From Styela clava (taxonomy: Eukaryota), in the NCBI RefSeq assembly GCF_964204865.1, contig NC_135253.1:16864001-16928000 (forward strand): DNA of 64,000 nt, given 5' to 3'. Under the pieces are notes generated by a model. It saw nothing but the letters and a program-made list of their open reading frames with translations. It was not told the origin of the DNA and made no database searches. Position numbers and translations under genes: made by a program. This document shows positions 9,201-62,255 of this stretch, piece after piece. How positions within the stretch are numbered: position 1 is the stretch's first letter; every line of letters begins with the position of its first letter.

Positions 9201-11734
9201 TGGATTGCTGAATTTCCAGACTTCAGGACTTTGCAGTCGGGTCAACAATATTCGGGAATAAAATTCTGCTACAAACTTTAGTATTGCTAAATTACAGTTG
9301 AGGAAAATAGATTTTTTAAAAGCTAAATTGCTGAACAGCTGTTGCAAACAAAGCCTGGCAGGCTGACCGACAACTCGACTACACCGACAACTCACCGTCT
9401 ATGACTGCTGGACATGTCCTCTGTATGAGAAGTTCTGAATTACCAGTCCTGCAGTCTGCCAGTACCGGTACCGGTACCGTAACGGAACTGTACCGGTATC
9501 CTACTCTGACTGTAGGGTACCGTATGTATTGTAAAAGATCTTGACAAAACTGATTTAGTATTTACTTATTTACCAATACAGTAAGGGGAACCCCATCACT
9601 ATAAAACGATTTCGATACACTGTACCGGAAACTCGCCTTGCAGACTTTTCAGAATTATTTTTTGTTACGCCAACCAATCACCTGCGAAAGCAATACAACG
9701 GTATGCAAATGTATGTTTTCCAGAGTCGCGACTTTTTTGTTTAGCCCTATGCTATGCCTATATAATACTGTTGTCCAGTCAGTAATACCACAATGTCTAT
9801 TTTTGCGTTAGCTCTTACACATTTTCCATTCGACAAATTTCCAAACATGGTTCTTTCAGAATATTGCCTTGTTTACGTTATTTTGACTGTCACTTGACAG
9901 CTTTTAAATTATGTTCCGAATATAGATTTTATGAATCAGAGATGGCCAACACGTCTTGAGTAGATCGCGTATGATGTTGGATTAATTTAATAACATAACC
10001 CGAAAAATTGCCCAAAACCAGTTTTATGCAGCGCCTGTTGTGTAATTTTAAAACAGAACGAATGCAGTACTGCATATGCGCAAAAGATTCGAGAAGTGAC
10101 CGCCGTCGCGTGCGGACGTGGCTACCTCGAACCGAAGATATGCATTCGAGAAGTGAATCCCAGACTTAGTGACATCAATAAACAAATAACATAAATAGCA
10201 GATTTTTTAATGATGGACTGGAAATGTGCAACATGGGTGCAAAATGGAAGATTTGGTGATGGACGAAATTATGCTCTGCTCAAATATGGAGAAGACCTGA
10301 TATACAAATGTTAAACCGTAAATATATACTTCTACGGTTAAACCAGAGCCATTATATAATGGTGGGGGTATATATTTACGGTTAAACTGCACGAACCGAT
10401 ATTTGAAAATTCACAATCGATTTTTACATTGGTGTGTTAACGTTTTAGTAGATTTTACTAGATATATGTTTGAGCGTGGAACGGAAACATGCATTCGCAC
10501 CTCATTCTAGGATTTTTCGGACTGTTTGTTTACATGCCGCATCACACGCACAGCGGATATTTAATTCACTGTTTTGTCTTTGAAAAGATTGCACGCAACC
10601 TGATTACCAAGTGAAACGTCTGAGTAATGACTGCCGTCAATATTCATGTTTATTTGTTTGTGTTTGTGACTCGTTTTCTTTTTTCTTTGGTAAGTGAACG
10701 CGTTTAATACGTTTTAAACCTATTTTATTAGGTTTTGTTCACTTTCCAGATTCTTCGCCTTAATCTTTTGTGTATATGTGTTTATTTTGTTTTTGCGAAT
10801 GAATCGAAATAAAATCTTGTCTTATCTTAAAATACGATATACACATACAGTAGTTGAGTCTGAGCAAGCCCGATAGCTCATATTGTTACGCGTAACAAAG
10901 TTACTGCGTAAATGTAACTCCAAGAGTAGTCGCAAGAAGACATTGGCACCCAACATGTCCAATTTTTTATAATTCCAAGCGAGCGAATAATCGGATTTAA
11001 AGAAAATTGTAAATTAGATACTGAACATTGAGCAGTCATGTAATATTCATGGTTTGACATATTTATTTTCAACTAATAAATGATGAAAACTTAGTCCAGG
11101 TACAATTATATAATCAAATTACTGTACTAAATTGAATGAAACATAAAATACAGAAATTGTTTGTAAAAACACATTGTTTTTATATATATATGGAAAAAAA
11201 GTAAAGAATGCATGAATTTGAATATGAAAATGTCAATTCAAAAAATGGGCAGCAGATATGCCGAAATATCCAGTCAAATGTATAATTTGGGGGAGAAAAA
11301 ATCTTATGGGATAGCTTAAAAATCGAAACGAATGGCCGAACGAGGAAGTGCTCATCGACCAGGGCCGGGCATTTCAAATCGAATTGTAAATTATTCGAAT
11401 TGTTTCAGACAATAATTTAGAATCGCCGTCATCCTCCATCTTGCTTTTTGTTCGACAAGGGTCGAGTGAATCTCTCAATTTTTTCATTGAAGCAACATGT
11501 TTACAGTGCAATTCTGCTATATATGACTCTTGTTATTAGTGAAATAAATATGTTTCTTATTTTGTATGAATACTCAGCGAACTGTCTAAGTAATAAACTC
11601 TATTTTTCAATAATTTATGTGTCTGAAAGATTCATAATAATATAAAAAAAAAATCCCATACAATTACAAGCATTCGAGCTATGCTCGAGAAATCGACCAA
11701 CAAACTTTAAATACAGGGCGTCGCTGCAAAATAC

Positions 11735-14455
11735 TTAAAATATATTGTTTTGGTGGTCTGGTAAATCTAATTTGTGATTGAGTACAACACCAAATTTTTT
11801 TCTCAATATACTTATAATGTCTTCATCCTCTGGGATAAGCTTGGTTGTTTTTGTTTCTCGATAATCATCAACATATTCTTTTCCGAGATAATTTTTGCAA
11901 ATCAATGCTTTCATTCCCAAAGCCGTCTGAAGAACGCAGAATGATATTTGTCTGAATTCGCTATTTTCATTATCTTGGGAAGCATCAATGTTTATCTGAA
12001 AATCTTCAATTTTGGAATTAGATGCTTGCAATGGAAATCGGAATCTACCATTCCATTCTAGGCCTTTGACTTGTTTGAGGTCGCCAACAGATTCTAAAAA
12101 ATATGAAACAGACATGTTATGCCAGTGGTTCTTAACTTTGTTAGTATCACGAACAAATTAATCAAATACTGTTGTGAAAATACTTTAAAAGCCGATTGAA
12201 CTACAATTCATTTTCACAAACCAGTGTGCGTTATAAATAATAAATAAAATTCTTACGATCCTAATGATCATAAATAAAGAAATAATCAGAAAAAATAATC
12301 AGGATGATGAGTAGAAATCAACGCATGTGTTGAGGAATGAAATGGGAAATAATTTTATAGTAGCAATGTCGGTCGGGACAGCCAAACGCCCTGTCATTTA
12401 AAAATAGAAAATTATTTAAAATTCGGCCAATCCCGAATTTTTTGCCAATATCGATTCCAGTGCTACAATCTCTACATGCCCGCACACGTCATGCTTGAAC
12501 ATTCAGACAGTAGAATACAACCCTATATGATAAATATATATATCCTGATTTTTCTGCAAGTTGTTTTGTGACTGAATAAGTGGATTAATAAACTCAGACT
12601 ATTTATTGTACTCTACAAATCTTCCACACTCTTCCAATTACCTTGATGCAACAATAATAGAAAACCATTGCATTAGTGTGGCCAGGTGTTTTTAGTTCTG
12701 AATTTTCTCTTAAGTCTTTCTCTTTTTAATCTTTGATTAAAAAATTTTATCGACAAGTTATCAAGTTCATTTATATGTATATATATTCACATTTAACACG
12801 AGACGAAGTGAAGTGATCAATCCCGAACTCTGTATCCCTCATAGAACTTATTTGCTTATTAAACATTTTAAAATTAGTTATCAAGTCGGCTTTGTTGGTA
12901 CACTATCATCATTTTACTAAATTTATTTATAGCTATACTCTACCTATTTCCTTTACGTCGATAACGGTTCTTGATAATTTTTCTACATAAAAATACCAAT
13001 TCTTTTCTTCGTTACAAATTTTTTTTAGAACTCTTGCTTTTGTGTTTCTTTGGTCTTGGGGTTCTTCTGTGTCCAAATCCAAAGGAAGTGCTAGTGAGCT
13101 CACGTCAGCGATTTTTTGTTTACCGTGTGGAAATTCTACCTATGAATATGAGCAATAAACAAAATAAATCATCATTAAATACAACTCTACCCAGAACCCG
13201 AAAACTACAGCCAGAAACTAATAAAAACAACTTCTTGTTGTCGGGCTCTACGAGTTTCTTTGTCGTTCAAGATAAGCGGAAATTTTATACCGATATATTT
13301 AGAGTTAGCTTCGTCTAATTCTAGTAGCCTGATCGTTTTTATCAATAAGCAAAGTGAAATCACGAGGACAAAATAATTCGAAGAATAAATAGGGTTAATT
13401 TGCAATCACTATATTAATTTAAATTTACGTCATCAGTAAACAACGTTAAAATTATGGAGCTCTAGAAGTATGTGCACCAAGATGGCGCACAGCCTGAACA
13501 TAGTATGTGTACCAGTTTTTGGTTCAGGTTGTGCGACACTTCGGTGCACATACTTCAGGAGCGCCACAATTATTCATGGCATATCAAATGAAGTAACTTA
13601 CAACTAATGTCAAGTGACCACCAATTAAACCATCACTTGATTGACGGTTTGAATTTGAAGCCATTGTACTTTCGGCTCTTATAACGTTGACCTTGAAACC
13701 CAGTTCTTTTAAGAGCCAGTTGAACATAGCATTAAGTTCATAACACATTCCGCCAACTCTGTCCGTAATTATTTTCCTGTAAAAATTAATGAAAATAATT
13801 CGACTATTTATCCCGGTGATGCCATCGAAATTATAACAGACTAAATTAGTTTTCAGTACAATTTAACCGCAAGTGTTCAAATTCTTTGCCTTATTACAAG
13901 ATGTGGAATTTGAAGCGGTCAAAGCCTGAAATGCGAATTCTTCATTCCTAATTCTGAACTGTTTTATTTCAGTATGGCGATTGCGACGGCTTTTCACAAG
14001 CCAAATACGATTCCAAAATGGTCACACATTCCGCAATTGTAAGAAAAATTTATCCATGTGTTGTTTGGCGTGTAAAATGCATTAGGGGAAAGCATTTCGG
14101 CTGGTGACCAATTTTTTACACCAAGTAGTAGCCTAAAATGCCATAGTCGCTGAAATACTTTGACAGGCAAACGCGTTGTTATTCGTCGATTATGCAGAAG
14201 TATCCCCACTGCATCGTCAAAATGTTTACAGACCGCAGAAATGTGCATAGGTAAACCAAGAGCAGCTGCGATTATTTGTACTTACCTGTATATCGATTCT
14301 AATTTCACGACCTTTCTTTCTCCACTGCCAAATAAATCCAACGTATAAAACGGAACATGTGTAACGTGAGCCCAACACAATTCCTTCAAAACTTCCTCAG
14401 TTGGATTTTTTGGACCCGAATATTCAATTCTTGCTAAATAGTCATCGACATCCAT
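11735..14455 (-). CDS. Arylamine N-acetyltransferase family protein (~299 aa; exons 14455-14286, 13776-13602, 13139-12944, 12093-11735)
   Basis: MDVDDYLARI start, HVTHVPF motif, and catalytic triad in GGMCYELN (Cys), GGHLTLVV (His), KIADVS (Asp). C-terminal LRKKFGV. GT-AG introns in phase (900 nt). Confidence 0.88.
13455..13566. mobile_element. Short palindromic MITE in NAT intron 2
   Basis: Inverted termini TGGAGCTCTAGAAGTATGTGCACC / GGTGCACATACTTCAGGAGCGCCA plus inner inverted match CAGCCTGAAC / GTTCAGGTTG. Confidence 0.75.
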
Positions 14456-14618
14456 GTCTGTATCTCTCCAATACGTCCGAGGATAAATATGCCTCCCGAT
14501 GTTACCAAACTGGGTTTACTTTGTACGGTACCTGTAAGTTAATCATTGTTCCGCCGGTGACAAAAATATTTGCTTTATTCATACCGGACGGTAACCAAGT
14601 AACGAAACCCCCTTACTT

Positions 14619-15474: not shown

Positions 15475-17501
15475 TCATCTCATCAAGTATATGGCTGTAC
15501 ATAATTCAGGAACATGCTTCAAGTTGAGAGACTGATACCTGATATCAACAAGATAATATAATTCATTACTGATTTGAATTTCACAATCGAACAAGGCACA
15601 GATGAATCATGAATGATAGATAAAAAAAAATGGTAAACTTGATTCAGATAGGTCAGAATTATCTCACTGAAGTCGTTCAATTTCCAGAAACCATTTATAT
15701 GTTCAATTTGCGGTAATCACTGCATAAAAAATTGTCACATATACTTACAACAGTTATAAAAAAGCTATAATTTTTTTTACTCTATGGTGCATATGATATT
15801 AGTTGTTGAAAACTACAGTATTTTTGTAAATTACATTACAACTTACATTTCTGATGTTCTGTGATAGTAATATCCTTCAATAGAAGCAGTAGACTTTTGA
15901 AAACAAATATAATAAAATCCAGCAAATGATGCACCATTTATGTCCTGAATTTTATGATCAGGAACCAAAAAATGCTCCTGAAAATAAATTGGTAGCAAAA
16001 ATAAAAATCATGCATAGCATATGGTCTACTTGAGTGGAGACGCTCAACACTAGATGTTCTAAACCGAATTGTCACAATGAGTTGTAAGAACAAGGCAATT
16101 CTAGCTTCAAAAAAGTAGCATTGTTCCCATTATATAATCACTTCTGTAGATATAAATCTCAGAAATGGTTACCAACAAAAATTAATGATGAAAGAAGAAA
16201 ATTTTTTTTGTTATAAATATTCTAACGAAGAATTTCATAGATTAATTTCCCACACACTTCAAAACTACGGGAGGTATAATGCACACTGTTCAGAAATGTA
16301 AAATTATGAATATTGAATCTATTCAGACATAAATAGGTATACTAATTACCTTCCATCTCATGAAAATATAATCACTATCACAAAGTTCTTTATAATCAAA
16401 ACCATCTGTGTTGAAACTCTTCTCGAACTGATTGAATGCTGTAAATTTTCCCTGTTTGAAAATACAAAAGATGAAATAACTATCTGCCGGAGATATTGCT
16501 TGGGAACAGAATATTTTGTATGTACTCTACAATACAATAAACAGTACATGTGTTATTGTACAATAAACATGTACAATAAACAGTGTGCTTTCTACAATTT
16601 TATCAGTCATAATTTAGTACCGTGAAAACTTGTGAAAATAAGAAAAAAAATCAATATCTTCTACAAAAGAATAATTCAAATTTTTTTTTATGATTCACAT
16701 TATAGTTATAGAACTTATAGTTATAGAAAAGAAGAAGAAGAATATAAGAAGTTATAGAAAATCGTCCATATATCGATACATTTCAAATAACTATAAAATG
16801 TCATAAGAACAAACCCAATGTTTTTTGTCTACTTCCTCATCAGCTTCCCATTTTCTTGTCAAGAAAGGATATCGTTCACTGATTATTTCACCATCAAAAA
16901 ATGTTGTCATAGTTGGGAAATCCTCCGTTAGTCCATCTATTTTTAAATAGCCGCAGAGATAGGAAGTATCCAAATCAACTTGCTATAATATATAAACAAA
17001 GAGCAAAGTTTAAAGCTTGTGATGACAGCTGTAGACAATTGTGACAATAAGAGACATGTATACTGTATTCGCAATTGGACTGCAGTAGGGATGCAAAAGT
17101 AAATGTAACTTGATGCAATAGGTATAGAACTAAGCGTTTGATTTTATATCAACTGCATTGTAAAAGAATTGCAATTAATTCAGTTATCAACCGAAAATAT
17201 TTTGAGTTTAAAGAAAAAAGTTGCCCAGATGCTAGAAACATGTAAATCATTATGTTCATTAGTATACTTTAATGAAGGTATGTAAAAAGATCGAAGAACA
17301 GACGAAGAATAGGCTATTCAAAAACAACTTATTACATCAAAAAGTATCCACCTGCAAAGTAACTTCAACATCATAGCAACTTCCTTTACTCTTTTGATGT
17401 CCACGGAATTTTGAACCATTATAAAGCAAAGTTCTATGTATAACAGGTTGTATTGTATTGCATGGTGGAGGAGGATCTAATGTGTCCACCAAAGCACTCA
17501 T
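15475..17501 (-). CDS. GID4: GID4 / Vid24 homolog, Pro/N-degron receptor of the GID/CTLH E3 ligase (204 aa; exons 17501-17352, 16982-16815, 16451-16350, 15977-15847, 15538-15475)
   Basis: [92 protein letters not shown]. Canonical splice sites in phase. Confidence 0.95.
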
Positions 17502-19031: not shown

Positions 19032-19544
19032 ATCTGAAAGTGGTGAGGCATATTGACTTGTATTTTCTTGTAAGCATGAGTCATTGATAATTAAAAAGTT
19101 ATGTATTTTATTTTCCTTGACCGTAGACAAAGGCTGTTGAAAAGCACAAACATATATTTTAGGTTCCTGTTTCGGGGGGAGTGGTGGAGGTGTGTTCCCG
19201 TTTGTTTTGGTTTTTATGATTTGCACTCTGCAAAGTTTCCTTATAATTCTCCTATTTTTACTTATCTGTACCGATATGCCGCAGTATAGTATTGTTTTGG
19301 TCGTCAGTGGCCTGAGTGTTAATTGCAATGAATTCCATAATCTAATTACCGATATGTAATTATTTATGCTTCTTGCATTACAGCATTGTAAAATAAATTG
19401 TCTATACTTATCGCTTTTTACCAAGCAGTATCGGTATTTTATTTTCTCACTTGTACAGGTTACTAGTAATGCATGCCAATTAACTGAAATTTCAGAATAT
19501 TTTGATTGAAGACGGAAGAAATACCTGTAACTACAGAACTAAAA

Positions 19545-25024
<5,480 letters not shown>

Positions 25025-28906: not shown

Positions 28907-29695
28907 GTTCAAATCTTTTCCATTGGATGTGTTAAAATTTTTGAAAAATCATCCCTGGTTCATTTAAACATGGTTGAGAGTCATATAGACATATTACTAT
29001 TATTAATTATACAATGCTATAGAAATTTAAAACATGATATAGCCTAAATGTATAAATTCCACAAATTTCAATTCTGATATAACATAAAAATCAACTACTG
29101 TAAATGCTTTATTCCTCATTTTTGTAGTTATGTGTACAATGAAAGCAAACTTTTGCCGCTTTATTTTCATGAGTTCGTTAACATTTAATAACTGATCAAT
29201 GTCAACAACGTTTAAAGAAAATCTGTATAAGTTACCGTACATATCATTCAGTCATTCCCACATTCTCACTGTCTCAACAAGAATTAATAAAGACTTGCAT
29301 ATCTAGCCTACTTATAAACTTATGCCAAATTTGTTAAAAAATTTATACAAATATATTTAATGCGCATGCAACATGGAGACAGACCGAGTTAATAATACAG
29401 TGTTAAATTCCTTCTCTCCAATAATACACCTAAATTTTGAATTCGATAACAAATTTCAGAATTTGGATTCAATTCACAGATTCATACAGACGTATAAACT
29501 TGTTGACTTGCCTTACCCCTCTACCGGTAGTCTACCCAGTTACCAGTACGTACCCGACTAGGGTATCTATAAACCTAGTCAGATCCTTCTGATTTTTTTC
29601 ATGCATCTAAAACAAATAATTGGCTAACTAATCCTTTACCATAGCCTACCGGACGTGGACTGATAACGGGACAAAAGCCATGGTACGGTACCGGT

Positions 29696-29752
29696 ACGCC
29701 ATATGATTAAGTCGTCTTATCGACTTTCATTACCCCGGGATAAATACGAACT
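29696..29752 (+). repeat. Short dispersed repeat, SINE-tail-like (related copies 46616-46690 +, ~19800-19835 +, ~2558-2600 -)
   Basis: Shared motif CGCCATAT..TCGGCTTTC..CCCC.GGATAAATA(T/C)G.AAATC across the loci; only the 3' part is present at 19800 and 2558. Confidence 0.55.
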
Positions 29753-29904
29753 TTCAGACTTTTACAATCTCGGTTATGCGAACCGAAGGGACTATAACAC
29801 TTTATTTGACGTGAACCAAGCACCAACTGAGGCGGGAATATGGCGGCAAATGTCCCAGACCGGTAGCTGTCGCCATGGCACAGGAATAAGTCACCAAATG
29901 ACTC

Positions 29905-30065: not shown

Positions 30066-30454
30066 AATTTCAGATATTCCTGTGAGCTTCATGGGATTTG
30101 TCTTTATTTTGAGCTATGACATGGGTCACATAATCGCTGGCAATAGACAATAAGTTTATTTCGTCGTGCAAGAAAACACAATACAAATTCAAAATAGGAA
30201 AAAAATAAATATGCGTTACAGTAACGGATTTCATTGCAGTTGACTGGAAGTCGCGAAGGACCAAAAATGGTCATCATAAGTCTGCGACACCAAGATTGAA
30301 AACAAGTCAATATTAAAAATTGAAATAAATGAAAGAATAAACACAAATATAAACTTATCCATTCAATAATTAATCAACAAGGTTGATATAAATCAGTATA
30401 TATGATTTGGGAGAGAAAGTAAAAATAAAAGTCGGGGAAATTCAATTGATATAT

Positions 30455-32531: not shown

Positions 32532-35500
32532 ATGTGGATTTAAACGGTATCATGAAATGTTAATACATCACATATATACGTTCAAATATATATATATATA
32601 TATATCCGTACCGCGCCGTTAGATGATGCGAACTGATAGAAAGGGGAAAGAAAACAAAAACCGGAAGGGAATGGAATGAGACAACAAACAACAGGACCGT
32701 GGTGTTCCTCGTAATCCGGAACCTCGTTACCGGCTAGCGTTTCCTTATGGATATCCGTGGCACATAGGGATTAGATTAGAGAAATCTGCTGTCCACGAGT
32801 GTTTGATATGGCGACTTTAACACAATATTATCGACAAATTAACAAATTTCTCTTGAGATTGTTTCAATGATACTATGCTTCTCTTTGCAATTTGCGTTTA
32901 TGGATCGTATTTTATCCAATTTAGGAATTCTAACGTTAATCCGTATAGGACGCGTATTTGACTCCATGCAGCGTTGTCCAATGCGTGAAAATACAATCCA
33001 AGTAAAATTACATTAATGTAAGTCAATGTAGGTACTCTTCGTCTATTTATCCACACACAGGCTATAAATACTGCTCATTTCGTCACGACTCACAGTGTCA
33101 TGCTACGAATAAACTGGAATCATGCCCTCATGTACTTGCACAATTTTATCACATTTACTCGCATTTTATAGTAATAAATGGAAACAGTTACTTTTAAATA
33201 TAATTCCATGGTAATGGCGAAGTATCTGACTTAATTAAAACATAACCCGAGCTTGTGAAAAATCATTCTCTACCATTTTAATTGCCATTATCTTATCTAT
33301 GAATTCGCTTATTCGGATAAACAGTCGTTGAGATTTTGAGATCTATTTTGCATTTTTATACCACCAGCATAAAGGTATCAAATTATTAATTCTAAGATAT
33401 ATTCAAAGTAATTTAATGCCATTGTATCAAAACATAATAAATTTGTGGACGCAAAATATGTAACCAAATATATAACCATATTACAGAATCTTGAGAATAT
33501 ATGTACGGAAATTTTCGTACGTGTTGCTATGATTTTTTGCGAACAGTTTTAGCATTTTGATTTATTATTTTTTGTTTCATTATTCCGCTGAAATTACCCC
33601 CTCACAGAAGTAAACTGGCATGACAAAAGTTAGTTTCATACTTGACTACAATAGCACAAGTTTGAGTGTCGCATACATACGCTGTCACAGCTTTTGTATT
33701 TGTTCATCGTAAAATTCCATCAATTCCATCCTTATTTCATCCATTGTTCAATGCCATATTTCAGATTGTAAACAACATCTTCCCAAAATGTGAATAATTT
33801 AAAATCGCTCAGAGACCCATTTGTGAAATTTAGTAACAATTGTCCTTTCAATCAAATATCATTGGTTGGTTGATGGGAAATTTTGCAGCATGGTTGAATA
33901 CTTTACATGCCTATGTACTATAATTATGTATGCTTGCAAGTAAGCTCGCGTGCACAATATGCAATGGTATGTGCGCGTGCAGTACATGCATGATGCGCAT
34001 GCTCAGTGCGCCTTGCCAGAGATCACGTGATCTTAAAACGCAGGCTGAGCTGCGGTTGGCGCATTTATAACTAAAACAACTAAGACCGCGTAGCTCGACA
34101 AAATGGCGCTAGTGATAAAGGACAGATTTTTTTTCATTTTTCAGTAATTTGGGTACTTTTTGTTTATTGTATTTTGTTAAGAAGAGTTACAGTTTATTTA
34201 CATCATTCGGGTTGAACTAAGCGTACAAAACAACTAGCTCAATTCTATGACACGAATTTGGTGACGACCCGCGATATGATTTATAAAGATGACTATATAG
34301 TCACGTCGTGACATTTGCAGACTTCCCTATGAGCTCACAGAATAGTTGAGTTTACAAATAAGACTTTTTGTCTTTCTTACGGACAAAAAAGGCAATGAAA
34401 ATGTACCAGTATTGGTGGGCAATTTAGGAAGGAAAAGATTAGAGAATACAGGATTTTCATTTTCCGTTTTCAAAAGCTTATGAAAACGGGATATCCTATA
34501 TTACAGACCTGACCGCTTTTCATGCACAGATTGTTTGTTTACTATGTTGGGGAAATCTTGTATATTCATGAAGTATTTCATACACAATCTAGCCTGCCTA
34601 GAAGTTTCGTTTTAAACGACCGGGATTTCCTAATTTTTCCCAGTTAAATTATTATTTCATTTTGTAATTGTTTTATAAATAGATGTCATAAAGTCATTTA
34701 TCCACAAATTTAGCTTAAAGTGTTCGGACTGTTTATTAGATCCCTCCACTTTTATCTTTATATTTAAATTTTCTGATAGATTGTTCAACGCTCGCCAGAA
34801 TATGCAAATCAGGTTCATGAAATGAAATAAGAAATTTAAATCTATCAATTTCAAATTATAGACTGTTTGTTGTCCATAGGCGATAACTAAATAAATTGCA
34901 TATGAATTTGTGTTTAAATAAGACTTAATTTAAAGTACAATATTAAATATTACGATCATAAAATAGTTGTGATATGTCGGAGGTATTTTACAGCTGTAAT
35001 GTTGTAACACCAAGCAGAATTAGAATTTGTATCTCAATACTAATTATGATTTCAATAACCACAACGTAAAAATGATACTATGGATACAGAATTTAATTCA
35101 ATAAAAAATGATATAGAACATTGATATTTCAAAATTTTACCGTTTTTTTCGTTCACTAAAAATTCCCCATACACTATTATATTTGTAGATGTTTTTCAAT
35201 TATCGAATCTTGTAATTTATTAGAAAGCTTCCAAAGGAAAATTACTGTTAAATTTCTGTTTCAGAAAATACAAATATGCGTGGCAAAATTAAGTACGCGG
35301 CAATCATAAGACTTTTCCCTGTTGGTGTGTACCTATTTATGTTTCAAAGGCAAACACGCGCTTCTAAATGGCTTCGAAACCGAAAAAGTAAGCGAGCACG
35401 TGTTCTATTTGATGACTGAAATACTCGTTTTGGTCATGAGGCTAGCCAGCTGTGCAACAAAGTGAGTTAGTTAGGCGTGGTGTGAGAAGAGAGAAATACT

Positions 35501-40585: not shown

Positions 40586-44344
<3,759 letters not shown>

Positions 44345-48470: not shown

Positions 48471-50040
48471 AAATAAAAATATTACCCACACTGATTAGCC
48501 TGGGTAAATATCCAATAGATGCACTTGAGTCTAGTACTGGAATTTAGAAATAATAAATTGTTACCGGTAGGCACTTTTTTAGGCACTTATTTAGGCACTT
48601 CGAAAAAAAGGTGAAATGGACGTAGTAACTCCTAGAAAGATAATGAATTAGTTCAAAATATTTAAATTAAATGTTGAACGCGAAAATTGCAACAGTTAAA
48701 CCCAATAACGATTTTTAAAACGTAGTATTGAAGGGAGACGCACGCGCTCTGTCACCACGTATGCTAGGCACATATTTAGACACTTCGAAAAATAAAGAAA
48801 ATGGCAATTATCACTAATAAAAGACAGAGAAATAAACATATTACCCACCCTGATTAGCCTGGGTAACTATCCAATAGATGCACTTGAGTCTAGTACTGGA
48901 ATTTAGAAATAATAAATTGTTACCGGTAGGCACTTTTTTAGGCACTTATTTAGGCACTTCGAAAAAAAGGTGAAATGGACGTAGTAACTCCTAGAAAGAT
49001 AATGAACTAGTTCAAAATATTTAAATTAAATGTTGAACGCGAAAATTGCAACAGTTAAACCCAATAACGATTTTTAAAACGTAGTATTGAAGGGAGACGC
49101 ACGCGCTCTGTCACCACGTATGCTAGGCACATATTTAGACACTTCGAAAAATAAAGAAAATGGCAATTATCACTAATAAAAGACAGATAAATAAACATAT
49201 TACCCACCCTGATTAGCCTGGGCAAATATCCAATAGATGCACTTAAGTCTAGTACTGGAATTTAGGAATAATAAATTGTTACCGGTGGGCACTTCGAAAA
49301 AAAGGTGAAATGTAGTAACTCCTAAAAAGATAATAAATTAGTTCAAAATATTTAAATTAAATGTTGAACGCGGAAATTGCAACAGGTATACCCAATAACG
49401 ATTTTTAAAACATAGTATCAAAGGGAGACGCACGCGCTCTGTCACCACATATGCTAGGCACATATTTAGACACTTCGAAATATAAAGAAAATGGTAATTA
49501 TCATGAATAAAAATACAGAAAATAAAAATATTAGTCAAAATAATTAGCCTATTTGAATATCCGATGAATGCACTTGAGTCTAGTAGTGATATTTGAGAAT
49601 AATAAATTGTTACCGGTAGGCACTTTTTAGTCACTTATTTAGATACTTCTAAAAATGCGTAAAATGGGCGTAATAACTTTTGAAATGATAATGAATTAGT
49701 TTAAAATATTTAAATTAAAAAATTAATATGCAAATTGCAACAAGTAAACCCAATGATAATGTTTAAAACGTAGTATTATAAGGAGGCGCACGCGTTCTAT
49801 CAACGCATATGCTAGGCACATATTAAGCACTTCGAAAAATAAAGAAAATGGGATTGATGGGACTAGTTAAACGCATTATAAAACTTGAATATTGATCATC
49901 TGAAGTACAATAAGTAAACCAATAAATGAAGTTTAAAATGTAGTATCAGACGCAGTCGCGCTGGATATACCTAGAAGAAAATGAGATTTATCACCAATAA
50001 ATCGCCATGAAATAAGTATATATTCGTCATAAAAGGTATC
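48471..50040 (+). repeat. Left arm: ~4.5 tandem copies of a ~330-359 bp unit
   Basis: ATTACCCAC.CTGATTAGCC at 48481, 48840 and 49199 (period 359); diverged copies at ~49530 and ~49900. Confidence 0.92.
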
Positions 50041-51414
50041 CTGGCCATATTTTAATCATGTTTTTTTTTTCGATTGAATTTGTTGTCGGTTTAGCTGATT
50101 ACGAAATTAATATGCATTCATATGCGATGTACACAATTGATTCTAGTAGTATCAATTAAAAATGTTGAATTGGTACCGGGTCCAGAGAGACTGCACATGA
50201 ATATATATATAGTTTATTCTGTGTTTTTCCCTTGAACATTTAATTAAAAATTTAAAAACACCTGTGACTTGAATAAATTTATTAATGACGGACAAAAAAT
50301 CATGGAAATATATTTGATTAAACATTTAAAAAATTGAAACCGTTATAAAAATACACCGAGTTCATAATGTTTTCTGTGATACACATTCTAGCAATTAAAG
50401 ACACATATCCGACTAACGAACTTATTGTTCTTTTAATTGAGAATGGTAAATTAAGATCGGTGGCATAATTGCAGGTATTTTGGAAAATAGGAAAGTGGGC
50501 GTTGCCAATAAAACTATTATATAGGACTTTAATTATTTTAATTATAGCATTTACCAAACTTACGTAGCATACGAACATCTAAAGTTTTGTTATCTGGAAG
50601 GAACTTTATTTGGTAAAACGTAGCTAAAAAATCTATTGTATAATATTGATGTCGCTCTATTATATTTTCACTACGACATATCGGCGAAACCTGAGAGCTG
50701 TGAAGCACTAGCGATCATACTTTCTGATTCATTTTATAAACTGCAAGACCTAGATTAATTAATATATTTAGGGCATCGTGATTGGGGAGACTGTATACTA
50801 TTTTACAAACATACTGTGCTGTCAAAAATCATTTCAAAATTATTAAATGTTGAACATTTATAACGAAAATTAATCTGTAAATAAGCTGCCATGAAACTTT
50901 ATGTCAATATACAGTATATATATACAGTCGCTGGTGAATAATTTTTTAACAGCTCAAAATCCAAAATAAGCAGAGACTGTAAAGAGGTCCACAATCTCAC
51001 ATTTTAAAAAGAGATATTGAAATACGATAGTAAAACACTACTTAATGGTTTACATTGCAAATTTGTTACGAAAAGTTGTGAAAAAAATAGGATGTAATGC
51101 AGCTCAATTATCCGAAGAAGATGAAACACCTGGTAAATCAGCGTTTTCTAGCAAGGAGGAATTCGTTCTTAGTAAAAAGTGTTGTTTTATAGTACAAAAA
51201 TATCGTTTAGTCATCACTACTATTTTAACACATATATATATATAAAGACCAATTTCAAACTATGCCAAAGTTGTGTATCATTCAATAATGATTTTAGAAG
51301 GCACAGCAAATGGGGTCTACGCAAATTTAAGTGGGAATACAGAGTTTCAAAATGGAAAAAGGGCGGAAAAGATTGAAAACCGCCAAGTTAAATGATATAC
51401 TGTCAAATACAGGT

Positions 51415-54374
51415 TTATTGCATACACCTATTGCAAACCCAATACATTTTTAAATCAAAATTATTTTGGCATTGATTGTGGTACCATTTACGACACCAGC
51501 AGCATTTGGCTTGGAAAAACTCACGAGCATTGCCAGGACAGGTGGTGCTCTCGCAGATTGACCAGTTCGAATTATCCATTGAATATATAGAAGTAGAATC
51601 GATTATTAAATCACTTGTTTCTCCAAAAATTTCGGCTTGAGAAAAATATTTTATTATTTTTGTTGTGAGACCACCGTCCTGAACTTTTTTTGGGGATTTC
51701 CTGCTCAATTTTCGTTTTAAATATAGATATTCTCCCTATTGTCTTGCAACCAGACCGTTAATAGGGGCAAAAGGTAACTGAGACAAAACGAAGAAAACAT
51801 TACATACAACGAATATTCCGCAGTCCGAGGAGTTGTTTTGCTGGGGTGTATCGGAATAAACAAATCGCTTCCACTCCAGTATGTTCGGGCAGCGGTCGAT
51901 TGCTGCGTATGAGGAATGTAATATTCTCATACATATGTCAATGGTGTTTTTTGACTGGCAAACATTGCGACCTGCCCTCCAGGAATCAAACAAACCAATC
52001 TCTTTTCTATCTAAATTTGCCACGGCGAGCTGCCAATGTACTTCTGTAAAATTTACAACAAAGACGAACAGGTCGTGATTCAGAGCTTCGTACCTACTGA
52101 GGAACTCTGCTACACATCTCCAATTTCCATGTTGCGCAGCTTGGAATATAGTACTTGGCACTACGAGAACCTGTTGATGTTTCTCCAAGTCCTCAACGAT
52201 TTGCTCGACAGCTAGGTTTACGCAGTCGTCAGTCAACCATTGGCCAGGTTTGAAAAATGCCAAGGTATTATCTGAGAATTGGGATTTCATTGTAGATAAT
52301 TCTTTTTCCCACTCCCCATTTCCCCAATTATTCGCAGGATGTTTTGGCGTTGATGTTTTAGGCAATTCAGCATCACTCTCAATTAATTGCGAGTTATTGC
52401 GGGACGCGTCAAATAAATTATTTGCAAGTGAATCCGGAGCTGATATTACATTATAGTGATACTCTTTTTGCCTGACTTTTCGTCCGGATTTTCCTTTGAT
52501 ATGTCTCTGTTTCTTTCGTAAGGCTGATAATGAAAACTTTGTTTTTTTGTCTAATTGTTGAGTCTGCAGACAAATATCCACTGCCTTTAAGTGCCAGCAT
52601 TCTTTTTCACCAAGACAGCTACATATTCTCGGGTCGATGGTTACGGCGATCCGCGCATTTGTATAGGGATTACATATCACGAATGTTCCGGATTGGTTTT
52701 CTAATGTGACACCATGTATTGACACACAGTCCTCAGCAATTCTTTTTTGTGGCTTTCTGTCAGGTGGAGAGAGATTTTCGGGAATACGGTTGCCTTTTAT
52801 TTGTCTGTATATGTCGCTCATCGAAAGAAGTTTTGGAATATTTTCATAATTCGTTACCTTTCTTTTTACTCCTGGAAGTAATTGAAATCGACCAAGACCC
52901 ATTTCCGCCATTTTAAAATCATATTCGTAGGTTTTCGTGATTTTGAACAATATTAAAGTCATATCGTCGGCACGACGCTCTCGGGATTCACATGCATCTT
53001 TCAGTACTTTATTGAAGGATTCACTTGCATTATTGGTGGTGGTGATGTTGTCAAAAGCTCGGAATCTATTCGTTACAATTTTGGAGGCACCTTTGATGAT
53101 GTACGTATTAAGTCGACTGTCGAAATAACTTTTAAATGGCCTCGACCATTTAACAGAAAATTCCATGTATAGCGATTGATAAGATTTAAGATCAGCGCAG
53201 TCTATCAATTGTTCCACGTGGTCTTTGTACACTTTAATATCATGCGCAGTTCCTTTATTTTTGCTTAATCCAATATTCCACGTCTCGTAAAATGTGATTA
53301 GTGCATTATACGTTTTTAAGCCATTGCTGCTTTTTTATTACATTTGTTATCGAGAATTCCCTGTCCGTTGGAATTGGAATATCACTGTCGTTTTCCACTT
53401 TAAGTGCCGTTTTTACGAATGAGAAAAGAAGCTCGTGATTTTCCTGCGATTTCCTTTCGTGAAGAAGGAAACAAACAGGGAAAATTGGATCGCCAACTAA
53501 ATTTGTTTTCCTCATGACAAGTGGGGAGATGAAGAAATCGCCAAGTTCAAACGTCGTGTCGTACGATAACGATTGCTTACACGAATTTTTAAATTTTAAA
53601 AACTTACAAATTTCCATTGCAGCGACATCTATGATGAAATCTGTGGCCATAACAATAGCCAAGCCAGGAATGAGAAGCATCGCACGGACAAAATTTGGTA
53701 GTTCAGTTTGGAGCTCGCAAATCGAATATATTTCATCCCGACATTTTTGTGATTGTATGGATGTCGAATAAGCAACGTTTCTTACTTGTTTTATGTCACG
53801 TGGGCGATCAACCGGTATTGTTGGAGTTGGATCTTGAGGTTTCGAATTTAGTCGACAATACACATCGTGTGGAGAAAGATCGTAATCAAGTTGGTTTTTG
53901 ATTTCAGTGAATACAGATTTTTTCGTGGGATAAAATAACTTGTTTTCATTTTTACAGCCACCGTGAGCAGTGTCAAAATACCTTGCAGAAGTTTCTCCTA
54001 GATAATGAACCAATACGTACCAACACAAACCATCTTTGCGTTGGAATTCGCTAACAATTTTCTTGAAGTTAAGGTGGTCTCTGTTTGCTCCCTTTGGATC
54101 TTTGAGGAACCATTTTCGGCGAATGAGCTTACCATTTGCAACTTCCCTTTTTCCAGCTCCAATCCACCTATACTGATCGGACAAATAATCTTTCGCATTT
54201 TTTTTCGTTACACTTGAAGATGTATACCTCTCCTGCATGTGGTTTGACTGGTGGATCGGTGGCAATTTTTTCTCTGGGCACCTTACCGTTTTCACATGTT
54301 AGAAGAAGATCGATTATATTTTTTGCTTTCAATATAGAAGTAAACGACTGTAGATATACAACGTTTCTTGACAT
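51415..54374 (-). pseudogene. Disrupted MULE transposase fused to SWIM finger, Ulp1 (C48) protease and PHD-like finger (~980 aa reconstructed)
   Basis: DDE residues SYDTTF / PTDRE / NNASESFN; CxxH motif (CTNH); SWIM CSCLGEKECWH; Ulp1 motifs GQWLTD, VHW, FDS, QQNNSSDCG; CCWCRKWYHNQC..WVCNRC. Lesions: frameshift at the T8 run 54198-54205, stop at 53306, frameshift ~53270, in-frame stop at 51736. Confidence 0.88.
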
Positions 54375-55545
54375 AATAAATGCGACGTGACGCGGATAAA
54401 GATTCTATCGGCACAGGCATTGAACGAATTGACTATAGACCCTTCCCCGAGCATCGACTTCTTTATGTACTTCGTGACATTGGCTAATCAGCAAGATGCA
54501 AAAAGTGACGTAACAATGCCCCCTTTTTGCATCCACTCAGACACTTTTCTCACTCAGACAGATTTTCAGGCGTGGTTTTAAACATTACCTCATTTTCGCG
54601 TTTTTGAACTCTTTTCGCCAATTTTTAGTTGTCTTTCGGAAATGTAAATATAAATCAGATAATTCAATGCTCACTATGTCTTTTTAGAAGTTTTAATTTA
54701 ATCACAGTAATAAGAAATTGGTGTTGAAATAGCTGTGATAGACTAGGCTAAAATTCCTCACCGTTACTTCTAAAACACAGATTATTGTCCGCGATGAATC
54801 ATAATGTTGGTTTGAAACAAATACCCCATTTTACAGGGGCCAACTCGCGAAACCACTAATAAAATATCCCCGAAAATTTTGCAATGGTAAAGTATAGGAA
54901 GATTCTTTCGGGGGTCAAAGGTCGGGGAAAGGTCCATTGCAATTGATTTGAGACATATATTGTTTCCAGACAATTGCGTATCACCACTGCTTTAAATAAT
55001 GAACTCTTTGAACCCTGGCGTCTCTGAGCTAGCAAGATTAACTAGTATGACCAATATCGTACAACTCCCTTTAATACTACGTTTAAAAGATTGTTATTGG
55101 GTTTACCTGTTGCACTTTGCATGTTCAACATTTAATTTTGACTATTTTTAACTAATTCATTATCTTTGTGAAAGTTATAAATCCCATGTTACCTTTTTCC
55201 TAAGTGCCTAATTGATGGTACCTACCGGTGACAATTTAAATTTTTTAAATGGCACTAATAAACTGAAGCGCATATTCACATAGGCTAATTAGCGTGAATA
55301 ATATTTTTATTTCTCACCCTTTTATTGGTGATAATTCTCATTTTTTTCTATTTTCGAAATGCCTTAATAAGTACCTAGCATATTTGGTGATCCTTCTAAT
55401 ACTACGTTTTGAATATTATCATTGTTTTTACTTGTTGCACTTCGCGTGTGCAGCATTTAATTTGACTACTTTTAACTAATTCATTAATTATGTTTTTAAA
55501 AGAGTTATTACGCTCATTTTAATTTTTTTTTTTTCGAACTGCCTA

Positions 55546-56094
55546 TCGTGTTTTCCCGAAAATATGACCTACCCTGAAAATAAGACCTAGCCTGAATTTT
55601 AGGAATTATATATAATACAAGAGAGCTATGCTCAAATATATGGACACGTAGAGTCACATAATTTTGATGACGTCATAGCGAAAAAAAAAGTAATAGCCTT
55701 CTGGAGAAAATTTTTATCTTTAACCACTGAAAATTTCAAAGCAATTGGTCCAGTATTCGAAGAGAAAAGCGACTTTTTAAAAACGTGTCAAAGAACAACA
55801 ACAACAACATAATATTGAAACGATCGTTATGTCCACTACGTGTCCAATAAGCCCTCCCCTTAAAGTAAGACCTAGTCAATAACGCGAATTAATTGACCTA
55901 GCGGATAGCAAGAAATCTCTCCTACACGTTTTAAATACCTAATAATCTACGGTTAACAGATATTTTCAATAAAAACGTGGTATTCATAAGTAAATTGATT
56001 TCGGTTTTCATATTTTGCATATTTGAAAATATCTTAATTCTTTACTTTGTAATTTTGTTTTTGATAAATTAAAATATAAGACATCCCCCGAAAA
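55546..56094. mobile_element. Tc1/mariner-superfamily (pogo/Tc2-like) MITE, one end lost
   Basis: Begins after TA with TCGTGTTTTCCCGAAAATATGACC; internal repeats of CCC.GAAAATAAGACCTAG; interrupts the array motif GTGCCTA|CCGGTAACAATTT. Confidence 0.6.
55617..55847 (-). mobile_element. Helentron-associated non-autonomous element (HINE/DINE-1-like structure), apparently complete
   Basis: 11-bp sub-terminal IR TGGACACGTAG (55641) / CTACGTGTCCA (55836); hairpin GAGC-TAT-GCTC (55623-55633); internal (CAA)n; no clear TSD. Other fragments at 24445, 29905, 47143, 57514. Confidence 0.7.
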
Positions 56095-58725
56095 ACAATT
56101 TATTATTCTCAAATACCACTAATAGACTCAAGTGCATCTATTGGATATTCAGCCAGTCCCAGGCTAATCATTTTGACTAATATTTTTATTTTATTTATTG
56201 GTGATTATTGCCCTTTTCTTTTTTTTTCGATGTGCCTAAATATGTGGTGACAGAGCGCGTGCGTCTCCCTTTAATACTACGTTTTAAAAATCGTTATTGG
56301 ATTTAACTGTTGCAATTTTCGCGTTCAACATTTAATTTAAATATTTTGAACTAATTCATTATCTTTCTAGGAGTTACTACGTCCATTTCACCTTTTTTCC
56401 GAAGTGCCTAAATAAGTGCCTACCGATAACAATTTATTATTTCTAAATTCCAGTACTAGACTCAAGTGCATCTATTGGATATTTGTCCAGGCTAATCAGT
56501 GTGGGTAATATTTTTATTTCTCTGTCTACTATTGGTGATAATTCCGATTTCCTTCTTTTTTCGAAGTGCCTAAATATGTGCCTAGCATATGTGGTGACTG
56601 AGCGCGTGTGACTCCTTTAATACTACGTTTTAAATATTGTTATTCGGTTCACCCATTGCAATTTGCGTGTTCAATATTTGATTTGACAATTTTCAACTAA
56701 TTAATTATCATTTTAAAAGTTATTACGCTCATTTCACATTTTTTTCGAAGCGCCTAAATAAGTGCCTATCGGTAACAATTTAATATTTCTAAATTCCAGT
56801 ACTAGACTCAAGTGCATCTATTGGATATTTACCCAGGCTAATCAGTGTAGGTAATATTTTTATTTCTCTGTCTTTTATTAGTGATAATTGCCATTTTCTT
56901 TATTTTTCGAAGTGTCTAAATATGTGCCCAGCATATGTGGTGACAGAGCGCGTGCGTCTCCCTTTAATACTACGTTTCAAAAATCGTTATTGGATTTAAC
57001 TGTTGCAATTTTTGCGTTCAACATTTAATTTAAATATTTTAACTAATTCATCTTTTTTTCCGAAGTGCCTAAATAAGTGCCTACCGGTAACAATTTATTA
57101 TTTCTAAATTCCAGTACTAGACTCAAGTGCATCTATTGGATATTTACCCAGGCTAATCAGTGTGGGTAATATGTTTATGTCTCTGTCTTTTATTAGTGAT
57201 AATTGCCATTTTCTTTATTTTCCGAAGTGTCTAAATATGTGCCTAGCATATGTGGTGACCAAGCGCATGCGACATCCTTTAATACCATGTTTTAAATATT
57301 GTTATTGAGTTTGCCCGTTGCAATTTGCGTTTTCAACATTTAATTTGACCATTTTTAACTAATTAATTATGTTTTTAAAAGGTATTACGCCCTTTTTACT
57401 TTATTTTCCAAAGTGCCTAATTTGCAAGTGCCTACTTTTAGTCCGTCCCCTATTTCTGCCCTGCCAATCGCCAAATTCCGCTTCATGATTTTTTTGCAGG
57501 TACGCTCTTTCTAAACAAGAGAGCAATCCTAAAATATATGGACACGACAGCCAAATCGATACATTTCACCCACAATTTTCCCAAAATCATTTTCTTGAAG
57601 CTGAACCTGTGGACCAGTGAACTTACTACCAGTACCGGTACTAGTACCAATACCAAGATTGCACTCTGATCCGTCAAAAAAAAAATACCCGGACTACTTC
57701 AGCCTTATCAGGTCCTGTGACAATGACGATCCATGCGTCTTGTGTCAACGCGAATCGAAATGCTAAATGATTCGACTCACAATTATAGCATCAATTAATT
57801 TAAAGTACCTTACCTGTTACATGACCTACCAAGATTGCCGGCATCAAAAAACTTTCTACTGACAGCGTTGCCAGATCCTAATGATGAAAAAAGTCAGATC
57901 ATAAAATAAAAAAGACAACAATTTTACAAAGTACGAAATTAAAATTTAGTTTAGAAAAGTACCATTAACACATAGAAATTTCCTCTTTAAATAGGTTAGT
58001 ATAGGATAGGTCATAAATTAGGACAACATGAAATCGAGGTGAGCTTTTTAATACATTGGATGAAAGTTTGACAATCGTCACGTGTGAAAGTCTTCGTCAA
58101 ATTTACAAATGCGGCGCCCATAATGTTTTGTTTGAGCATTCATACCTTAACAACTTACCTTGTGTAGTCATCAATGGTTTGAGTACAGAAATTGGTGAGG
58201 CAGTTAGGGTTAGGAATACAGTTTGAATTGAAAGTTATCCTGATTTACGAAATATTTTTTTTAGTTGGCTTAGGAGTCTCAGTCATGGTCTTGCATGCTA
58301 ACCCTCACAAATCTCCAAATAACCATTACGTTAACTAAATATTATTGAATTATTTTTTCTGTCCTTGAATCAAATGTATCACAGTGCAGCAGTGTGTACT
58401 TTGTTTTAATAATAAAATATCTCTCTGTCTATGTTTCATTTTACTTCTATTCCCCTGCATCTAATTTGTTCATCAACAGATCGAAAAAGCACTGCTGTAC
58501 TAGTGGCCTACTTCCCTTTGTTGATAGAAACTATATTGGTTTCGTGACCGATTCTCTCAGTGATGTCTTAATAATTCACCCTAGTTGGCAAGTGGCAGAA
58601 ATGTTTTAGAGCTAGCCAAAGAACGAAATTGCATTCAAGTTCATATTTGGATATAGTGCAAGATATCACAATCAGACTGACCAAACTCATTTGTTTTTTA
58701 ATAAGTTAATTCATTTACATATGAC

Positions 58726-60069
58726 ATGGTTAAGCAGGTCATTTTCGAAGACTCACATAGAAAATACCTGGAAAAAGTAGCTGCACAAACCAAGTGTACA
58801 GCAGGTTTAATTTTGGGACACATAACAAGCAACAAAGATTATATTGCAAGCTTTATAAGATGTCCATCTCCGACTGATGGTGAAAACGTTAAGCAATGGA
58901 ATGGTGTCAAAGACGTTGAAGGTTCTTGGGTGGCTGGTCATTCAGCACAAATAATTTCGAGTCTATCTGGAGGTATTAATATTGTTGGTGTATTTTTGAT
59001 TGCACCAACTGAAGAAGCAAAACAAGTATCAGAAAAACTGAAGCAAATCGTTTATCAAGCGTACAAGCTTGTATCAAAAACATTAAGTGAAGTAGACAAT
59101 TATCTCCAGGATTCAGATGAATCTTTATTTTGGACAGTTATGCATGTTGATGTCAAAAATGGTTTGGTTGCTTCTTGTCGTCAATATGATGTAAAAGACA
59201 ACAAAGATATCGGTAGGCCTATGGATCTGAAAATAGTTGATGCTCCAATACAGTGGGAATGCTGTCAAACAACCTTGAATATCAATAAAGTTAAATCAGA
59301 AAGAGTTCTAACCCAATGCATTTCTGCCGATATTTTTGAATCTATGTTGAAACTTTTTCAAGACCAGGTGAAAAATGCTATTGTTACTATAGAACAGAAA
59401 CACAGAGTTGAAACAGATGTACTAAATCCTTCATCCACTAGCAATCACTCTGCAAAAGGGTCTAAGAAAAAGAAACCTGTCGTTAAGTCACAATCGGCAA
59501 AAACATTGTCATGTCAAATTTTCATCCCAACCTCTTTACAGATAGAAAATCCTGATTTGTGCCATAGTCTTCAGGTTTGTGGAAGCATTACAGCAAAAGC
59601 ATATTTGCCTCCAAACTCAACAGTAGGACAAGCAGTGATAGCACTTAAAAGAGATATTCTGCAGACTATTCACCAAAGAATTGAAATATTATCTGAGGAT
59701 CCAATTGACCTATCAGGTGGGGAACAAAAAATTTCAGTCTCTTTTCCACGAAGAGTATTTGCAAGTAATGGCCAAAATGAAACTATTCTGTATTCGGATT
59801 ATATACTACATGATGAGCCTTTGAACGACTGCTTGGAAAGATTTAAAGACAATTTAGATATGGAGTTGCAATCCAATGAACTTAGTATGGAAAACTCTTT
59901 TGAAAAGTTCCAACCAGAACAAGATTGTTCTCGGGGTGAAGCCATCGAGAGCGAGATGGAAGGAATACATGAAGGGGCGAGTAAAACTAATGCTGTTATT
60001 GCTCTTGTGGCAACAGCTGTAGCATTCTTAGGGTGGATATTCTCTGGTCTTGTTATAAATGAAAATTAA
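58726..60069 (+). CDS. ODR4: ODR-4 homolog, ER membrane GPCR maturation factor (447 aa, intronless CDS)
   Basis: GLILG..KDYI...CP, WVAGHSAQI...LSGGINIVGVF, AVIALKRDILQTI..R.EIL.ED, FPRRVF, YSDY..DE; C-terminal TM anchor. Confidence 0.9.
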   Translation: MVKQVIFEDSHRKYLEKVAAQTKCTAGLILGHITSNKDYIASFIRCPSPTDGENVKQWNGVKDVEGSWVAGHSAQIISSLSGGINIVGVFLIAPTEEAKQVSEKLKQIVYQAYKLVSKTLSEVDNYLQDSDESLFWTVMHVDVKNGLVASCRQYDVKDNKDIGRPMDLKIVDAPIQWECCQTTLNINKVKSERVLTQCISADIFESMLKLFQDQVKNAIVTIEQKHRVETDVLNPSSTSNHSAKGSKKKKPVVKSQSAKTLSCQIFIPTSLQIENPDLCHSLQVCGSITAKAYLPPNSTVGQAVIALKRDILQTIHQRIEILSEDPIDLSGGEQKISVSFPRRVFASNGQNETILYSDYILHDEPLNDCLERFKDNLDMELQSNELSMENSFEKFQPEQDCSRGEAIESEMEGIHEGASKTNAVIALVATAVAFLGWIFSGLVINEN

Positions 60070-60306
60070 GAATTTGTCAATTCTTAGCTCTCAAATGTCA
60101 AGCAATGATCATTACTTGGGAGATCTGTGCAGGCATCAGCATGCTGTAATTTGCAACGAGATTATGCCCAAATTCTCTGGTCTTGTTATAAATGAAAATT
60201 AAGAATTTGTCAATTCTTAGCTCTCAAATGTCAAGCAATGATCATTACTTGGGAGATCTGTGCAGGCATCAGCATGCTGTAATTTGCAACGAGATTATGC
60301 CCAAAT
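60039..60306. repeat. Perfect 133-bp tandem duplication spanning the ODR4 stop codon
   Basis: ATTCTCTGGTCTTGTTATAAATGAAAATTAA...GAGATTATGCCCAA starts at 60039 and again at 60172. Confidence 0.93.
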
Positions 60307-62147: not shown

Positions 62148-62230
62148 TTTGAACTGCCTAAATTAATAGCTAGCTTAAGTTATACTGTAATAGGACAATT
62201 TATGTTTTTATTATGCAAGTATACACAAAC

Positions 62231-62255
62231 ACCGTACCGGTACGGTACCGGTACT
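62231..62255. promoter_or_regulatory. (GTACCG)n palindromic cluster near the 5' end of PDCL; similar clusters at 9462-9524, 29521-29556/29682-29698, 57626-57654, 14523-14532
   Basis: ACCGTACCGGTACGGTACCGGTAC; recurs near the inferred 5' ends of consortin, NEDD1, ODR4 and NAT. Confidence 0.5.

Follow-up and report, generated by a model that had tools for sequence, protein, structure and literature searches.

A short palindromic word, TACCGGTA, recurs together with its half-sites CGGTA and TACCG in clusters near the 5' ends of several genes, probably broadly expressed ones, in a stretch of the genome of the ascidian Styela clava (assembly GCF_964204865.1, contig NC_135253.1, positions 16,864,001 to 16,928,000). 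The occurrence of the word at these loci is a real, non-random feature of the stretch, which was analyzed as a whole (64 kb, G+C content 34.5%) and is referred to here as the window. With a probability of roughly one half, we read the word as a DNA-level cis-element, a putative clustered binding site of broadly expressed ascidian genes that would be kept by selection. All evidence comes from five loci within this one window of one genome, and all gene ATGs were derived from translations, not transcripts.

The window contains 13 copies of TACCGGTA, where 0.38-2.3 are expected depending on Markov order. Among 21828 8-mers the word ranks first under an order-2 model (0.38 expected), fourth under order 3 and tenth under order 4. 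Eight copies lie in four gene clusters, four in the arms of a Mutator-like transposon and one in an intron of LDHD. The longer form GTACCGGTAC is present in six exact copies (9462, 9468, 29688, 57632, 62234 and 62245) that make up four short arrays, situated upstream of consortin, NEDD1, ODR4 and PDCL; with at most one mismatch, eight copies are found against a mean of 0.42 and a maximum of 3 in 100 dinucleotide shuffles. These arrays, with their sequence and coordinates, had been described correctly in an earlier note on this DNA, and the gene names it used are borne out by Pfam or PDB.

The arrays are built of GTAC boxes linked by one or two C/G bases. Such GTAC-S(1-2)-GTAC pairs occur nine times at five loci (consortin, NAT, NEDD1, ODR4 and PDCL), compared with 0.15 in simulations. 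ACCGGT alone among the 30 self-complementary hexamer classes both exceeds one-third G+C and has arrays at four loci, and of 256 palindromic 8-mers tested only two reach p<1e-9, both of them part of this repeat. Clusters of the half-site (at least three CGGTA in 200 bp) number six in the window, with a null mean of 0.91 and a maximum of 5 in 100 simulations. Five are at gene 5' ends (consortin, NAT, SGT1-LDHD, NEDD1 and PDCL) and one is at 32545-32728, where no gene was found; four of the five 5' regions of putative housekeeping genes thus carry a cluster, and by the same definition ODR4 and the transposon have none.

Gene 5' ends and CpG-depleted domains

The observed-to-expected ratio of CpG (CpG o/e) divides the window into the kind of mosaic familiar from ascidians: it is low over consortin, GID4, LDHD-NEDD1 and ODR4-PDCL, and normal values are seen for NAT, ERG, the transposon and intergenic DNA. 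Genes marked by the word have CpG-depleted bodies (o/e 0.43-0.70) and a CpG-normal 5' flank. The bodies of the unmarked NAT and ERG have ratios of 1.01 and 0.84, respectively, and the third unmarked gene, GID4, follows SGT1 within a depleted domain. From CpG depletion we infer the methylation state of the gene bodies. According to PMC3827831, broadly expressed genes in Ciona are distinguished by body methylation with sharp borders, and the 5' edge of ascidian methylated domains is proposed to be shaped by promoters; true CpG islands are lacking at ascidian promoters (PMC3333190). The association with 5' ends of broadly expressed genes that the earlier note proposed is supported, and the CpG-depleted gene body adds a criterion that is independent of the motif.

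We used the five 5' regions of CpG-depleted genes as the test set. Out of 9780 words, CCGGTAC discriminates best, being present in four of the five regions and absent from 48.5 kb of background (p=1.2e-6, ~0.012 after Bonferroni correction). When the variant TACCGATA is admitted, a choice made post hoc, TACCG[AG]TA marks all five regions: 11 copies are found in their 5.5 kb (2.0/kb), as opposed to five in the 49.5 kb of non-transposon rest (0.10/kb), and none at the other three genes, NAT, GID4 and ERG. The earlier note had likewise seen no cluster upstream of GID4 or ERG. In ~25 kb of CpG-normal non-promoter DNA there are no copies of TACCGGTA, and the survival of CpG is therefore insufficient by itself to explain where the word is found.

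All four arrays lie no more than 1.2 kb upstream of an ATG, a zone that comprises 18% of non-transposon DNA (p=0.001); the p value varies between 0.001 and 0.03 with the width of the zone, and ODR4 is lost at 1 kb or less. The actual distances, 84-1099 bp, bear out the ~1.1 kb reported before. A two-state CpG model, run with the arrays masked, places the 5' edges of the CpG-depleted domains at 9359, 18570, 19369, 29634, 58119 and 62312. The arrays are 131 bp (consortin), 56-109 bp (NEDD1), 69 bp (PDCL) and 484 bp (ODR4) from these edges, and the first LDHD site is 101 bp away. Three of the four arrays are thus within 150 bp of such an edge (3.3% of positions, p=1.4e-4) and all four within 500 bp, although CpG depletion is a proxy for the methylation edge and nearness to it is not separable from promoter proximity.

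An origin of the word across whole gene bodies followed by CpG decay was considered and rejected, since the decay words are not enriched in depleted bodies (TACCAGTA, 1 against 0.70 expected; TACTAGTA, 0 against 0.27).

Marked loci

The consortin cluster (9457..9524; ATG 9200, minus strand) lies 262-324 bp upstream of the ATG and comprises three in-phase GTACCG units (9462-9479), an extra TACCGGTA at 9491 and TACCGTA at 9518. Beyond the array, further upstream, a lone one-mismatch copy at 9622..9630 also matches what we take to be an ETS word. At PDCL (ATG 62147, minus) the array at 62234..62254, 84-108 bp upstream of the ATG, consists of two GTACCGGTAC with one base between them. NEDD1 (ATG 28906, minus) has two clusters 615-792 bp upstream of its ATG: a proximal one at 29522..29556 with TACCGGTA, TACCAGTA and GTACGTAC, and a distal array at 29683..29697, which reads GTAC-G-GTAC-CG-GTAC and is accompanied by more half-sites at 29647 and 29861. 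Words resembling YY1 sites and RFX X-boxes stand at 29837-29880, upstream of the gene. The coding sequences of NEDD1 (26879-28906) and ODR4 (58726-60069) are intronless; the region is otherwise intron-rich.

The head-to-head genes SGT1 (ATG 18846, minus) and LDHD (ATG 19545, plus) share a 698-bp intergenic region with three dispersed TACCGATA in 19269..19436 (at 19269, 19347 and, in reverse, 19429), spaced 78 and 82 bp apart. It holds four one-mismatch copies against 0.21 expected, and of the 8-mers with at least three G/C, four form a triple of this kind, TACCGATA among them. The earlier note had called both this region and NAT weak; the sites between SGT1 and LDHD are stronger than that, and the term suits NAT (ATG 14455, minus), where GTACGGTAC and two further CGGTA half-sites occupy 14523..14593. 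The NAT site lies upstream of the ATG by 68-76 bp and is separated by 536 bp from the 3' edge of the CpG-depleted GID4 domain. The best named relatives of the SGT1 protein are those of Phallusia mammillata (53%) and Ciona intestinalis (55%); like these proteins, SGT1 here lacks the TPR domain, and its gene is intronless.

The ODR4 array (57627..57656; ATG 58726, plus) has five degenerate units, one of them intact, 1071-1099 bp upstream of the ATG and ~180 bp from the end of the transposon. The minus strand nearby has strong donors at 58158 (9/9 U1 match), 58145 and 57813 (8/9) and an acceptor at 57878, which suggests a spliced transcript that would run across 57626-58158 from the ODR4 promoter towards the transposon. 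These signals make the assignment of the array to ODR4 doubtful, and it may belong to the divergent minus-strand transcript instead.

Relative to the transcription start sites (TSSs), the arrays probably lie mostly just downstream. According to PMC4691747, trans-spliced Ciona genes are G+T-rich directly downstream of the TSS. Here the sense-strand G+T skew switches at about -510 (consortin), -1003 (NEDD1) and -698 (PDCL), in each case upstream of the array, and at -748 in ODR4, downstream of its array; these estimates are noisy.

Two further words were seen near the arrays. Three of the four arrays have a CCAAT box (27 in the window) at a distance of 110-165 bp, located at 9674, 57464 and 62366. 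AGTCAGA is present in four of the five 5' regions (near 9506, 29577, 57892 and 62296), three times within ~40 bp of an array; as a second shared word it is not significant after correction. At the edge of the window, three GTAC boxes without CCGG (131-143), overlooked by the earlier note, presumably belong to the end of a hAT-type miniature inverted-repeat transposable element (MITE) with a terminus near 228-242.

Readings of the word

We propose that the unit would be the half-site CGGTA/TACCG, two overlapping copies of which would make the palindrome TACCGGTA or its variant TACCGATA. Sites would come in clusters of two to five within ~200 bp, some of them dispersed, and slippage could locally multiply some into GTAC-S(1-2)-GTAC arrays of two or three units. 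They would occupy the unmethylated 5' zone where it borders on the methylated gene body, mostly just downstream of the probable TSS in a first exon, a first intron or an outron. A sequence-specific, probably dimeric protein may bind them and help to hold promoters open and active, and its predicted action resembles that of DREF and BEAF-32 at TATCGATA/CGATA clusters in Drosophila. Protein binding, TSS position, housekeeping expression and function are all inferred here from the DNA sequence. The binding-site reading is the simplest because a single word turns up at unrelated 5' ends, in dispersed as well as arrayed form, and is absent from 25 kb of equally CpG-normal DNA. Of the mechanisms offered in the earlier note, a protein-binding site or a chromatin or methylation-edge signal remains as a candidate.

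A number of observations weigh against this interpretation. The base of five loci in one window is small, the loci were chosen for showing the pattern, and both the zone width and the TACCGATA variant were fixed post hoc. By gene count the strict word is present in 4/6 versus 0/3, which is not significant (Fisher p=0.12). The ATG and CpG-edge tests are not independent, because a site close to the ATG is to some extent bound to be close to the edge as well. Neither orientation nor spacing is fixed, and the distance to the ATG varies from 84 to 1099 bp. SGT1 and LDHD are without the strict word, NAT carries a half-site cluster though its body is not CpG-depleted, and ODR4 has a single intact site, no half-site cluster and a position upstream of the strand-skew switch. 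Rather than at a 5' end, one intact TACCGGTA (23815..23822) lies deep within an LDHD intron (23501-23995). The gene-less cluster at 32545..32732, overlooked by the earlier note, has three CGGTA half-sites within 200 bp of CpG-rich intergenic DNA and is either a counter-example or an unannotated start. Finally, the tandem form and the CpG-type decay (7/14) would also fit an ageing microsatellite, and TATCGATA, the true DNA replication-related element (DRE), is not enriched (one copy in the window against ~1.4 expected).

The main rival is a neutral one, which we regard as possible but doubtful. It takes the word for a self-complementary hexamer microsatellite, generated by slippage or template switching in open promoter DNA transcribed in the germline; it would persist where CpG is unmethylated, decay at the methylated edges, and so mark housekeeping 5' ends without having a function. 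The tandem 5-6-bp units with indels, the lack of fixed spacing and the longer imperfect palindromes that surround the consortin and PDCL arrays are as expected for such a repeat, as is its unit, which is identical to that of the (ACCGGT)n microsatellite, and its degenerate edges. Seven of the 14 in-phase substitutions at array edges are CpG transitions, an excess when every type of change is given equal probability (p=0.0004) but not when transitions alone form the baseline (p=0.15). A neutral origin would be expected to yield a different word at each promoter, but the same one is found repeatedly; the decay products TACCAGTA and TACTAGTA are unenriched in CpG-depleted bodies; and neither inverted duplication nor flank complementarity reaches significance outside the arrays (p 0.13-0.94). 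The copies between SGT1 and LDHD stand ~80 bp apart, a dispersed layout that slippage does not produce. Unlike a typical microsatellite, the repeat has at most three perfect units, includes non-tandem copies and is confined here to 5' ends. Perfect (ACCGGT)n of at least five units is absent from the available portion of a survey of 154 eukaryotes (PMC3397955), a cut-off below which the arrays in the window fall. (ACCGGT)n is listed for C. elegans (PMC3091743); we do not count this as a precedent because the letters of the entry may have been sorted, in which case it would stand for a different repeat. If the word is neutral, it would still be an odd mutational signature.

A signal at the RNA level, either a hairpin or a splice element in the outron or 5' untranslated region (UTR) that would steer cis- versus spliced-leader trans-splicing, appears improbable. 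It would suit the arrays of consortin, NEDD1 and PDCL, which are downstream of the skew switch, and those of consortin and PDCL fall within the usual span from TSS to first acceptor in Ciona (median ~455 bp, PMC11155486). Consortin and PDCL also fold well (z -2.3 as RNA), and the NAT and PDCL sites start directly after acceptor-like sequences with scores of 5.2 and 5.9, where true acceptors score 4.7-14.8. However, only three of seven sites fold better than shuffles as RNA and two of seven as DNA; the remaining four do no better as RNA, so that a hairpin as a general property, as the earlier note suggested, is rejected. The palindrome is strandless, no Rfam match was found in the window, and the relation to splice sites varies from gene to gene. 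Matrices built from 23 donors and 24 acceptors of this window gave donor-like sites of comparable quality at a background of 1.8 per kb per strand, and adjacency of arrays to donors therefore means little. GTAAG adjoins four of the seven sites in question, but strands differ and it is partly in phase with the motif. The tie to first-exon donors that had been claimed for most sites is accordingly rejected.

Remnants of a Mutator-like family, either scars of promoter insertion or sites read by a domesticated transposase, are if anything slightly less probable still. The candidate source is a transposon at 48471..57450 (minus strand; ends approximate, the left end looks truncated) with foldback-type long inverted arms of ~350-bp tandem units. 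Its transposase region, whose relatives carry a MULE domain, contains a Ulp1 (C48) protease domain and is no longer intact, having a stop near 51736 and a frameshift near 53306-53334; with a CpG o/e of 1.12 the element is not CpG-depleted. TACCGGTA is intact in four of eight aligned arm units, not in most of them as had been stated, with TACCGATA or TATCGGTA in two more, and the central CG is invariant in all eight; TACCGATA is also the form found at SGT1-LDHD, and the element ends ~180 bp from the ODR4 array. Nevertheless, the arms have no GTACCGGTAC and the element no half-site cluster, the arm 8-mer was formed where TTACCGG joins a TAGGCAC sub-repeat, and the arm copies count as a single event because all descend from one unit. 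The flanks of clusters resemble neither each other nor the arm unit (27 masked pairs, lowest p=0.12). A shared transposon or MITE origin of the clusters was rejected on the lack of flank similarity beyond the motif.

Sites for an ordinary factor of the Grainyhead/CP2 family (core CNRG) are very unlikely. The ascidian word shares the ACCGGT core of this family, its observed cores are CCGG, CCAG and CTAG, and Grhl1 still accepts a changed central dinucleotide at the cost of a 3-6-fold loss (PMC5829564). However, the outer bases of the ascidian word are TA and not the AA/TT of AACCGGTT, which is found in none of the seven clusters and once in the window, in ERG; the CP2 spacing CNRG-N5/6-CNRG is present in one cluster and absent in six (window-wide, CNRG-N6-CNRG occurs 18 times against 14.8 simulated); and TACCGATA disrupts the essential second G on one strand. 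Identity with a Grainyhead/CP2 site is thus rejected. Chance combined with the selection of a striking window, for which the small numbers, the post hoc zones and the gene-level p=0.12 for the strict word might speak, is hardly credible, as word counts exceed all shuffles and simulations and the top rank of CCGGTAC survives correction for 9780 words.

Comparison with known promoter words

The closest parallel to the proposed binding site is the DRE/BEAF system of Drosophila. BEAF-32 elements have at least three CGATA in 200 bp near promoters and restrict a repressive chromatin mark (PMC2605929), the DRE is found at broad (housekeeping) promoters (PMC4691747), and the DREF and BEAF-32 proteins have transposase-derived BED fingers (PMC3606216). 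Both words are palindromic TA..CG..TA octamers made of overlapping pentamer half-sites and clustered near promoters; CGGTA is one transition away from CGATA, which is itself contained in TACCGATA. The ascidian word differs from TATCGATA at two symmetric positions, forms tandem arrays and is located at a putative DNA-methylation edge. The single TATCGATA of the window is outside the 5' regions. CGATA has a density of 2.4/kb in the 5' regions versus 1.3/kb, and its clusters do not follow these regions. The ascidian word would therefore work like the DRE but is not the DRE, because the sequence test with TATCGATA fails.

A bolder version, which we consider unlikely though worth stating, predicts that the sharp 5' limit of gene-body methylation is set by CGGTA clusters, which would serve as boundary elements and be read by a transposase-derived protein. 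Such elements would be the chordate equivalent of BEAF-32, with DNA methylation as their target and the word family also represented in the Mutator-like arms. If true, this would name the cis-signal that keeps housekeeping promoters unmethylated without CpG islands in mosaic invertebrate methylomes. A short word at methylation edges would offer a direct handle for genome-wide counting, reporter deletion and use as pull-down bait, and it could help to find promoters of trans-spliced genes, whose TSSs map poorly.

That tunicates evolve private promoter words is shown by TCTAGA of Oikopleura (10.1101/140764), a single, testis-specific word with a fixed place 40-50 nt upstream of the TSS. Both are palindromic promoter words of a tunicate, lineage-restricted in the case of TCTAGA and putatively so in that of the ascidian word, whereas the ascidian word is clustered, variably placed and found at genes that are probably broadly expressed. 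The accessible text of the literature on TACCGGTA, GTACCGGTAC, TACATGTA combinations and ACCGGT does not describe the word, which could still be held in figure logos and supplements, outside the scope of that search; nor does the accessible text on ascidian promoters and methylation edges, and the ascidian papers on methylation and promoters name, in their available parts, no sequence signal for domain edges. The term "motif" is absent from the main texts of PMC3827831 and PMC4776710, ACCGG from PMC6292497 and 10.1101/140764, and CCGG from PMC8857917.

Other features of the region came to light in the same analysis. SGT1 and GID4 (ATG 17501, minus) are tandem minus-strand genes (15478-18846) with 690 bp between them, share one CpG-depleted domain and have a strong acceptor at 17530; the pair is likely an operon. 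For ERG/FLI (plus strand) a large exon from 41333 gives a putative 5' end only. An abundance of TACCGGTA/TACATGTA words in some other marine invertebrate genomes, though suspected, is not borne out by the literature covered here and does not enter the evidence. A Pfam scan for hidden genes near the clusters, covering 116 of 261 longer open reading frames in unannotated DNA (the 111 longest and five others), returned only the consortin C-terminus and two sub-threshold matches. Small hairpin elements and nested inverted repeats at 10310-10387, 13450-13571, 30446-31259, 31714-32534 and 33115-33396 are probably MITEs. A 133-bp exact tandem duplication (60039-60306) spans the stop codon of ODR4 and the start of its 3' UTR and is either recent or an assembly artefact.

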